Below are positions 14,426 through 17,839 of a stretch of 45,272 nt of DNA, piece after piece. Made by a program: the position numbers and the translations under genes. Source of the DNA: Escherichia phage HannyBb. How positions within the stretch are numbered: the first letter of the stretch is position 1; each line of letters starts with the position of its first letter. The stretch lies in the sequence record PP925841.1, one strand, 5' to 3'. The notes under the pieces were generated by a model. The model had not been told where the DNA came from and did not search any database. It saw nothing but the letters and a program-made list of their open reading frames with translations.

Positions 14426-17400
14426 ATGGGTAAAGGCAGCAGTAAGGGGCATACCCCGCGCGAAGCGAAGGACAACCTGAAGTCCACGCAGATGCTGAGC
14501 GTGATAGACGCCATCAGTGAAGGGCCGATTGAAGGTCCGGTGGACGGATTAAAAAGTGTGCTGCTGAACAGTACGCCAGTGCTGGACAGTGAGGGGAATA
14601 CCAATATCTCCGGTGTCACGGTGGTTTTCCGGGCAGGTGAGCAGGAGCAGACACCGCCGGAGGGATTTGAATCCTCCGGCTCCGAGACGGTGCTGGGTAC
14701 GGAAGTGAAGTACGACACGCCGATTACCCGGACCATCACGTCTGCAAACATCGACCGTCTGCGCCTGACCTTCGGTGTGCAGGCACTGGTGGAAACCACC
14801 TCAAAGGGGGACCGGAATCCGTCGGAAGTCCGCCTGCTGGTTCAGATACAGCGTAACGGTGGCTGGGTGACGGAAAAAGACATCACCATTAAAGGCAAAA
14901 CCACCTCACAGTATCTGGCATCGGTGGTGGTGGGTAACCTGCCGCCGCGCCCGTTTAATATCCGGATGCGCAGGATGACACCGGACAGCACCACAGACCA
15001 GCTGCAGAACAAAACGCTCTGGTCGTCATACACCGAAATCATCGATGTGAAACAGTGCTACCCGAACACGGCACTGGTCGGCGTGCAGGTGGACTCGGAA
15101 CAGTTCGGCAGCCAGCAGGTGAGCCGTAATTATCATCTTCGCGGGCGCATTCTGCAGGTGCCGTCGAACTATAACCCGCAGACGCGGCAATACAGCGGTA
15201 TCTGGGACGGAACGTTTAAGCCAGCATACAGCAACAACATGGCCTGGTGTCTGTGGGATATGCTGACCCACCCGCGCTACGGCATGGGTAAACGTCTTGG
15301 TGCGGCGGATGTGGACAAATGGGCGCTGTATGTCATCGGCCAGAATTGCGACCAGTCGGTGCCGGACGGTTTTGGTGGCACGGAGCCGCGCATTTCCTGT
15401 AATGCCTACCTGACCACACAGCGTAAGGCGTGGGATGTTCTCAGTGATTTCTGCTCGGCGATGCGCTGTATGCCGGTATGGAACGGGCAGACGCTGACGT
15501 TCGTGCAGGACCGACCGTCGGATAAGGTGTGGACCTATAACCGCAGTAATGTGGTGATGCCGGATGATGGCGCGCCGTTCCGCTACAGCTTCAGCGCCCT
15601 GAAGGACCGCCATAATGCCGTTGAGGTGAACTGGATTGACCCGGATAACGGCTGGGAGACGGCGACAGAGCTTGTGGAGGACACGCAGGCCATTGCCCGT
15701 TACTGTCGTAACGTCACGAAGATGGATGCCTTTGGCTGTACCAGCCGGGGGCAGGCACACCGCGCCGGGCTGTGGCTGATTAAAACGGAGCTACTGGAAA
15801 CGCAGACCGTGGACTTCAGCGTGGGTGCAGAAGGGCTTCGCCATGTACCGGGGGATGTCATTGAAATCTGTGATGATGACTATGCGGGGATCAGCATCGG
15901 CGGGCGCGTGCTGGCGGTGAACAGCCAGACGCGGACACTGACGCTCGACCGTGAAATCACGCTGCCATCCTCCGGCACCACGCTGATAAGCCTGGTTGAC
16001 GGACAGGGGAATCCGGTCAGCGTGGAGGTCCAGTCCGTCACCGACGGCGTGAAGGTAAAAGTAAGCCGTGTTCCTGACGGCGTTGCAGAATACAGCGTGT
16101 GGGGGCTGAAGCTGCCGACGCTGCGCCAGCGCCTGTTCCGCTGTGTGAGTATCCGTGAGAACGATGACGGCACGTATGCCATCACTGCCGTGCAGCATGT
16201 ACCGGAAAAAGAGGCCATCGTGGATAACGGGGCGCACTTTGACGGCGACCAGAGCGGCACGGTGAATGGTGTCACGCCGCCAGCGGTGCAGCACCTGACT
16301 GCCGAAGTCACCGCAGACAGCGGGGAATATCAGGTGCTGGCGCGCTGGGACACGCCGAAGGTGGTGAAGGGGGTGAGCTTTATGCTTCGCCTGACCGTGG
16401 CAGCGGATGACGGCAGTGAGCGGCTGGTCAGCACGGCCCGGACGACGGAAACCACATACCGCTTCACGCAACTGGCGCTGGGGCGGTACACGCTGACAGT
16501 CCGGGCGGTAAATGCGTGGGGACAGCAGGGCGATCCGGCGTCGGTATCGTTCCGGATTGCCGCACCGGCAGCACCGTCGAGGATTGAGCTGACGCCGGGC
16601 TATTTTCAGATAACCGCCACGCCGCATCTTGCGATTTATGATCCGACGGTACAGTTTGAGTTCTGGTTCTCGGAAAAGCGGATTACCGATATCAGGCAGG
16701 TTGAAACCACAGCCCGCTATCTTGGTACGGCGCTGTACTGGATAGCCGCCAGTATCAATATCAAACCGGGCCATGATTATTACTTTTATATCCGCAGTGT
16801 GAACACCGTTGGCAAATCGGCATTCGTGGAGGCCGTCGGTCGGGCGAGCGATGATGCGGAAGGTTACCTGGATTTTTTCAAAGGCAAGATAACCGAATCC
16901 CATCTCGGCAAGGAGCTGCTGGAAAAAGTCGAGCTGACGGAGGATAACGCCAGCAGACTGGAGGAGTTTTCGAAAGAGTGGAAGGACGCCAACGATAAAT
17001 GGAATGCCATGTGGGGCGTCAAAATTGAGCAGACCAAAGACGGCAAACATTATGTCGCGGGGCTTGGCCTCAGCATGGAGGATACGGAGGAAGGCAAACT
17101 GAGCCAGTTCCTGGTTGCCGCTAACCGTATCGCGTTTATTGACCCGGCAAACGGGAATGAAACGCCGATGTTTGTGGCGCAGGGCAACCAGATATTCATG
17201 AACGAAGTGTTCCTGAAGTATCTGACGGCTCCCACCATTACCAGCGGCGGTAATCCTCCGGCATTTTCCCTGACACCGGACGGGCGGCTGACGGCGAGAA
17301 ATGCTGATATCAGCGGTAACGTGAATGCGAACTCCGGGACGCTCAATAATGTCACGGTAAATGAAAACTGTACGATTAAGGGCATGCTGGAGGCGAACCA

Positions 17401-17839
17401 GGTCAGAGGTGACTTCGTTAAAACTGTATCCAAATCATTCCCGAAAAAGGCTGGTACGTGGGGTAACACGGAAACACCAAACGGGACGGTTACAGTCACC
17501 ATTTACGATGATCATAACTTTGACCGCCAAATCATTATTCCGCCCATTATTTTTAACGGTGTGGCGTATGACGATCCGGGGAGCGGTAATAACCCGGGAG
17601 GTACGCGATACACGGGTTATGGTTTTGAAGTTCGCAAAAATGGCGTATTAATCGCATCCAGAGAAACTAAAGGAGCCATTCCCGGTAGTTACAGTGCGGT
17701 TATTGATATGCCGAGTGGTGGTGGTAACGTCACTCTGGAGTTTAAGATTTTCCAGAAAGGCAATCAGGGCGCAGGTAACATCACAGACTGTACGGTGATT
17801 GTGACCAAAAAAGCTGCTTCCGGTATCAGTATCCGTTGA
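14426..17839 (+). CDS. J: Central tail fibre / host specificity protein J
   Basis: 1137 aa; N-terminus [22 protein letters not shown] and most of the length match recalled lambda gpJ; the C-terminal ~150 aa differ from it. Confidence 0.92.

Follow-up and report, generated by a model that had tools for sequence, protein, structure and literature searches.

A mosaic J gene in Escherichia phage HannyBb with a 434-type tip cassette and OmpC, rather than LamB, as its most likely receptor

Gene J and its C-terminal module

The stretch of DNA analyzed here, 45,272 nucleotides from Escherichia phage HannyBb (PP925841.1; hereafter the window, numbered from its first letter), contains a homologue of lambda gene J, whose C-terminal receptor-binding domain (RBD) is the subject of this work. 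An earlier reading of the letters, made without database searches (the original prediction), had proposed that this J follows lambda J for about 980 aa and then departs from it, as expected for an exchange of the RBD, and that the phage probably does not use the lambda receptor LamB. HannyBb J stands in the tail operon after homologues of M, L, K, and I, the gene order annotated in lambda, 434, and Tritos, and its product carries the complete series of Pfam domains in the order seen in lambda, from the N-terminal hub domains to the C-terminal Ig-like RBD (PF24801, PF13550, PF24421, PF24489, PF09327, and PF12421, all above their cut-offs; the names along J are FNIII-A_GpJ, Phage-tail_3, Ig_J, Ig_J_second, Phage_Tail_Tip, and Ig_GpJ_C). 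With this domain series, this position, and a body nearly identical to that of lambda J, the protein belongs to the lambda-type gpJ proteins. Over its full length, the gene matches J of Tritos at 98.4% and J of phage 434 at 94.5% nucleotide identity. The features of the gene and of the region downstream are collected in Table 1.

Table 1. Gene J of HannyBb, the parts of its product, and the features downstream (window coordinates).
Feature	Position	Strand	Details
Gene J (tip attachment/central tail fiber protein)	14426..17839	+	1137 aa, intact single open reading frame (ORF); from the ORF list and translation
Lambda-like body of J (hub domains, FNIII domains, helical shaft, beta-prism fiber)	14426..17356	+	aa 1-977
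Conserved linker, probable left recombination junction	17303..17365	+	aa 960-980; nearly invariant across sampled RBD types
434-type (h434) receptor-binding module	17357..17839	+	aa 978-1137; identical residues: 60/160 vs lambda, 147/160 vs 434
Ig-like RBD proper	17426-17833	+	aa 1001-1136; PF12421, GpJ C-terminal receptor-binding domain
Hypervariable segment 1	17444..17470	+	aa ~1007-1015, KAGTWGNTE; lowest conservation across RBD types, 2-aa indel vs lambda
Hypervariable segment 2	17570..17614	+	aa ~1049-1063; 6-aa insertion vs lambda; identical in 434
Hypervariable segment 3	17666..17692	+	aa ~1081-1089, TKGAIPGSY; identical in 434
Hypervariable segment 4	17747..17779	+	aa ~1108-1118; indels vs lambda, low conservation; I1108V, Q1110H, G1115R vs 434
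Terminator-like hairpin and T-run after J, right end of 434-like module	17860..17889	+	Terminator scan
Stf homologue (side tail fiber), intact	17900..20272	+	790 aa; PF08400 prophage tail fiber N-terminal domain, E=2e-67
93-aa ORF	20272-20553		PHROG 1361
Second fiber protein, 343 aa	20563-21594		Peptidase_S74 intramolecular-chaperone domain
102-aa ORF	21622-21930
Pin/Gin-like serine recombinase	22158-22748	-	Resolvase and HTH_7 domains
Tyrosine integrase, 431 aa	24130-25425	-	Arm-DNA-binding domain; at the end of the late region

The body of J aligns without gaps to lambda J (NC_001416, 15505-18903), with 945 of its 977 residues identical (96.7%), and is identical to 434 J at 951 of the 977. 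At the nucleotide level, the first 2900 nt of the gene hold 159 mismatches to lambda (5.5%), and identity runs between 0.86 and 1.00 per 100 nt as far as window position 17325. It is 0.74 in 17326-17425 and 0.39-0.48 in the 100-nt bins thereafter. When the same comparison is made in 30-nt steps, mismatches climb from 4-7 to 15-18 between 17336 and 17425 and are at 15-18 per step from 17396 on, which maps the change-over to about 17346-17400, i.e., to within roughly 50 bases. So sharp a break beside a body that is 97% identical is far beyond chance fluctuation. In the module that follows (aa 978-1137), only 60 of 160 residues (37.5%) match lambda J, and four indels are required to align them.

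These results bear out the proposed course of J, lambda-like for some 980 aa and different afterward, and the position given for the start of the divergence (17366, codon 981, at N-C-T-I-K) is off by no more than about 10 nt from where we find the divergence to begin, at V978 and N979; the end given, 17839, is the J stop codon. The question of whether the C-terminus might after all be colinear with lambda J has a divided answer, in that the two ends are homologous and can be aligned at the identity just stated, but the HannyBb sequence is clearly not the lambda allele. Judged by its sequence, the C-terminus of J is the same domain in a divergent allelic form, and not an unrelated or foreign replacement.

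Both domain and structure searches place the tip in the gpJ family. The match of aa 1001-1136 to PF12421 (Ig_GpJ_C) has E=4e-25 and scores 88.9 bits against a cut-off of 26.2, and the J tip aligns colinearly over 336 aa with the Protein Data Bank (PDB) chains of lambda gpJ and "A8 gpJ 713". We generated a monomer model of the tip with AlphaFold2 from a 20-sequence alignment, which is all-beta, and used it as a query for Foldseek. The only strong neighbors were 8xck/8xcj (lambda gpJ tip, closed and in complex with LamB) and 9wca/9wcb (A8 gpJ tip, closed and in complex with EDL933 OmpC). Across RBD types, the framework is conserved and indels are concentrated in the four hypervariable segments of Table 1, of which segment 4 has only approximate limits (the smoothing threshold flagged just aa 1113-1114). 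Four bottom loops of lambda gpJ, L1-L4, are known to insert into LamB (PMC11101478), and by analogy the four hypervariable segments may be the corresponding receptor-contacting loops.

The 434-type allele and the edges of the cassette

The module aligns to 434 J without gaps and shares its indel pattern, with 147 of 160 residues identical, which places it in the 434 type of RBD. Hypervariable segments 2 and 3 are the same in both phages; a single change is found in segment 1, and three in segment 4 and its flank. Over its 474 nt, the tip sequence is 100% identical to those of prophage Tritos, PhiR11_1, and PhiR63_1, 96% identical to ev207, and 92-93% identical to 434, lambda h434 imm21, mEp460, cdtI, and many long-tailed Stx-converting phages. 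When the 157-aa tip was searched with tblastn against 50,697 phage records, 73 records matched at 93% aa identity or more and no other record exceeded 45%, with lambda-type records at 36.4%. In these sequence comparisons, RBD alleles form discrete classes with nothing between 45% and 93%, and the HannyBb tip falls in the 434 class. The dN/dS ratio between the HannyBb and 434 tips is 0.15, which suggests purifying change and gives no sign of recent diversifying selection.

The allele is also widespread. Of 5426 complete E. coli genomes, 2082, well over a third, have a match to at least 80% of a 601-nt query that extends across junction and tip, and near-identical tip modules are found on unrelated backbones, namely Stx-converting phages, cdtI, mEp460, and lambda h434.

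The left edge of the module lies at a conserved linker, since the switch from lambda-like to 434-like sequence falls within or just after aa 960-977. The same stretch, at lambda gpJ aa 964, is the fusion point of the functional engineered gpJ chimeras of Brodel et al. (PMC11338833). HannyBb offers a clean natural case of a tip cassette shuffled at the very linker that is exploited in the engineering of retargeted lambda particles. Just upstream, a patch at aa 927-965 (window about 17204-17320) differs from both lambda and 434, at E927, Y932, R954, R958, and N965. Its dS values are 0.44 and 0.66, against 0.17-0.19 for the remainder of J, and it carries a "NEVFLKYL...DGRLTA" variant that is otherwise found upstream of other RBD types. 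As read from the sequence, then, at least three pieces make up the mosaic of J, these being the body, the aa 927-965 patch, and the tip. Separately, J nt 1301-1700 (window 15726-16125) form the only part of J that is clearly less Tritos-like, with 0.90-0.95 identity per 100 nt against about 1.00 elsewhere. This part is equally far from lambda and 434 and looks like another small recombinant patch.

At the right edge, similarity to 434 runs through the J stop codon and a hairpin at 17860-17879 (an 8-bp stem with 6 GC pairs, followed by TTTTTATTT), which is homologous to the annotated terminator behind 434 J. It ends at about 17889, just past the T-run, beyond which 434 has lom and HannyBb has stf. 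Unlike in lambda and 434, there is no lom between J and stf in HannyBb, and window positions 17840-17899 hold the hairpin and then the stf ribosome-binding site and start codon. We propose that aa 978-1137 and the terminator behind J make up a cassette encoding the 434 (h434) allele of the Ig-like RBD, and that this cassette was most likely moved onto the present backbone by homologous recombination. Along such a route, the left crossover would probably lie in the nearly invariant linker and the right crossover at or after the end of J.

The exchange of a receptor-binding domain that had been put forward at the outset is supported by the coincidence of the diverged stretch with the gpJ RBD, as judged from PF12421 and from the structural model, by the occurrence of the unchanged module on other backbones, and by the discreteness of the alleles. 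It could instead be supposed that point mutation at an accelerated rate, for instance through targeted hypermutation, made the C-terminus diverge in place, with no cassette being exchanged, and the strong diversifying pressure on receptor-binding tips and the framework residues that can still be aligned with lambda would fit such a history. We nevertheless regard it as barely credible, although no search of the window for a diversity-generating retroelement was made. The change-over is completed within about 50 nt, nucleotide identity past the switch is near random and indels are included, the identical 474 nt are present in other phages with near-identical copies on unrelated backbones, and intermediates between 45% and 93% identity are lacking among the alleles.

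OmpC as the predicted receptor

According to published accounts, the C-terminus of J sets receptor specificity, and lambda given the J of 434 in place of its own binds OmpC, which 434 uses as its receptor (PMC3509688, PMC11101478, and PMC12502783, the last citing Fuerst and Bingham 1978). Since phage 434 and lambda h434 hybrids use OmpC, OmpC is a likely receptor for HannyBb as well, the more so because its allele is 92% identical to that of 434, with no difference at all in two of the four hypervariable segments. Our favored interpretation, which we hold with good though not full confidence, is that J is a mosaic with an exchanged 434-type tip cassette and that the receptor is most likely OmpC and not LamB. 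The expectation that HannyBb probably does not use LamB is in this way sharpened, on sequence grounds, to a tip of the 434 type with OmpC as the probable receptor and LamB as an unlikely one. Growth data are available for phages with the identical RBD, in that Tritos has been propagated on K-12 MG1655 hsdR- (PMC9928086) and the record of PhiR11_1 gives E. coli K-12 in its host field.

In the sequenced hybrid lambda h434 imm21, the crossover from lambda to 434 DNA lies inside J, at record positions 17619-17637 (codon ~706-711). Ahead of aa 978, lambda and 434 J are identical at 957 of 977 residues, and because they are nearly identical from this crossover to aa 977, the RBD is the large difference between them within J. 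We did not adopt lambda h434 imm21 as a map of the h434 determinant, as the RBD is not isolated in it, its 434 DNA extending onward across lom, stf, and the b-region.

Several further points weigh against assigning OmpC to HannyBb with full confidence. The hybrid just described has 434 lom, stf, and b-region in addition to the 434 tip. The HannyBb RBD differs from that of 434 at 13 of 160 residues, and four of the differences (A1009V, I1108V, Q1110H, and G1115R) lie in or beside hypervariable segments 1 and 4. The structural model of the tip is a monomer of moderate confidence (mean pLDDT 76.6), in which loop positions are to be taken as approximate. Receptor experiments for HannyBb or for phages with an identical RBD were not found in the accessible literature, and literature searches for receptor data on Tritos, mEp460, and the PhiR phages returned nothing usable. 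In addition, the tip of phage 21 (OL657228; 6700-7173) is 82% identical to the OmpC-binding A8-type tip, and yet Phi21, which we assume to carry the J of OL657228, is reported to be a native LamB user that gains OmpC through a single mutation in J (PMC11336670). Because the phage 21 and A8 tips are this similar while their reported receptors differ, receptor choice is labile in this domain family. For this reason we rejected the argument that the same fold and a similar sequence suffice for a receptor call, and lowered our confidence in OmpC to match. OmpC users are found among at least four sequence types of the domain (434, A8, 1A2, and phi330), and this, together with the contrast between phage 21 and A8, means that similarity below about 90% is no safe guide to the receptor. 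Even at 92% identity, a shifted preference for another porin or for particular OmpC variants is possible.

A tip that is 434-like in sequence might, accordingly, belong to a Tritos subtype that recognizes another porin or outer-membrane protein (OmpF, PhoE, NmpC, OmpN, or another) or only certain variants of OmpC. The 13 substitutions relative to 434, four of which fall within or close to hypervariable segments 1 and 4, would allow for this, as would the finding that single J mutations alter receptor use in Phi21 and lambda (PMC11336670), the different receptors reported for RBDs that are 82% identical, and the ability of the A8 and 1A2 chimeras to tell OmpC variants apart (PMC11338833). On the other side stand hypervariable segments 2 and 3, which are the same as in 434, a dN/dS against 434 that is purifying rather than diversifying, and the growth of identical-RBD phages on K-12, like 434. 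We consider it unlikely that the Tritos-subtype tip, joined here to a patch (aa 927-965) that elsewhere accompanies other tip types, has a shifted specificity of this kind. If it did, the 434 type would comprise sub-alleles that divide E. coli hosts among themselves according to porin allele.

Retention of LamB as a receptor, alone or beside another, is less probable again, and in our estimate very unlikely. For comparison with the lambda-type, LamB-binding RBD, we took lambda J aa 978-1132 including loops L1-L4 as the reference stretch. Against it, the HannyBb tip has 60 identical residues of 160 and four indels, the variable segments being unrelated. The fold and framework residues are held in common with the LamB-binding RBD of lambda, and LamB use has been reported for phage 21, whose RBD sequence is distant from that of lambda. 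Set against these are the 37.5% identity to lambda with indels in all four hypervariable segments, and the standing of the 434 allele, 92% identical to that of HannyBb, as the classical host-range type independent of LamB.

With OmpC as the most likely receptor, adsorption may be pictured by analogy with the lambda-LamB and A8-OmpC pairs. Three J chains would form the central fiber of the virion, with a trimeric RBD at its end, and the variable bottom loops of this RBD would enter the extracellular mouth of a trimeric outer-membrane porin, most likely OmpC. Docking on the porin would then trigger the opening of the tail tip, as solved for lambda and LamB (PMC11101478) and for A8 gpJ and OmpC. 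The side tail fibers encoded downstream would probably add a first, reversible adsorption step. The loop-to-receptor contacts in this scheme are drawn from the related structures and are to be read as putative.

For annotation, the value of this work lies in a concrete receptor prediction, OmpC and not LamB, and in the accompanying warning that resistance or host-range assumptions based on lamB in lambda do not carry over to this phage. The fold and the docking mode have already been solved for two sister alleles, and our results contain nothing that goes beyond what is known from publications on h434, from the genome sequences of 434 and h434, and from structures of gpJ.

Neighboring genes and comparison with known tips

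The window represents a lambdoid phage of the Tritos/mEp460 kind, with a structural half 98.7% identical to Tritos. Given the tyrosine integrase at the end of the late region, it looks like a complete temperate phage genome. The side-fiber region downstream of J (17900-21930) is intact and does not resemble that of lambda. Its stf gene is annotated as a lambda stf homologue in Tritos and is a second host-range determinant, adjoining J; the products of the region probably contribute to host range independently of J. The Pin/Gin-like recombinase gene lies just downstream of the tail fiber genes, the usual place of invertible host-range switches. A search for an invertible tail fiber segment beside it gave no convincing inverted repeats on its flanks, the top-ranking pair being 18 nt long and 89% complementary (19349-19366, within stf, and 22639-22656, within the recombinase gene).

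Among tips of known structure, the lambda gpJ RBD with LamB (8xcj/8xck; PMC11101478) is like that of HannyBb in its Pfam domain, its Ig-like fold, its place at the tip of a trimeric fiber, and a set of common framework motifs (GD.VK, FP, DD..FDRQ, NG, DMP.G.G, and KK..GIS). It is unlike it in its low overall identity, in the indels in all four variable segments, and in the receptor to be expected.

The tips of A8 (9wca/9wcb, with EDL933 OmpC), 1A2 (PMC11338833), and phi330 (PMC12502783) belong to the same domain family and to OmpC users. The evidence is structural for A8 and functional for A8, 1A2, and phi330, and it indicates that the fold docks on OmpC trimers. They are separate alleles, though, about 43-50% identical to the HannyBb RBD, and as such do not establish its receptor. 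We had considered whether A8 and 1A2 (from the supplement of PMC11338833) might carry this same allele and rejected the idea, as they are other types, ~48-50% identical; the typing of 1A2 rests on a DNA listing damaged by optical character recognition (OCR) and on its resemblance to P0118.

The closest relatives by sequence are PhiR11_1 and PhiR63_1 (PV340547 and PV340573), with an RBD module 100% identical to that of HannyBb, and prophage Tritos (OV696610) of the adherent-invasive E. coli strain LF82, in which the module is likewise 100% identical and J as a whole matches at the nucleotide identity given above. HannyBb departs from Tritos in a few patches of J (J nt 1301-1700) and in its early, regulatory half, which is a different mosaic and just 64% covered by Tritos.

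Phage 434 provides the classical counterpart. The h434 host-range allele has been known genetically since the 1960s-70s, and dozens of phage records contain it under the annotation J. Its sequence is available from 434 and lambda h434 (PMC9119081). Compared with 434 J (OL657226) and the h434 allele (OM418627), HannyBb J has 13 substitutions in the RBD and a separate patch at aa 927-965, and is followed by stf where 434 has lom. In the other respects compared, namely a length of 1137 aa, an alignment free of gaps, identity at 147 of the 160 RBD residues, and a homologous terminator behind J, the two are alike. The HannyBb tip is the h434 host-range allele, common and already described, and nothing in it departs from the known picture.

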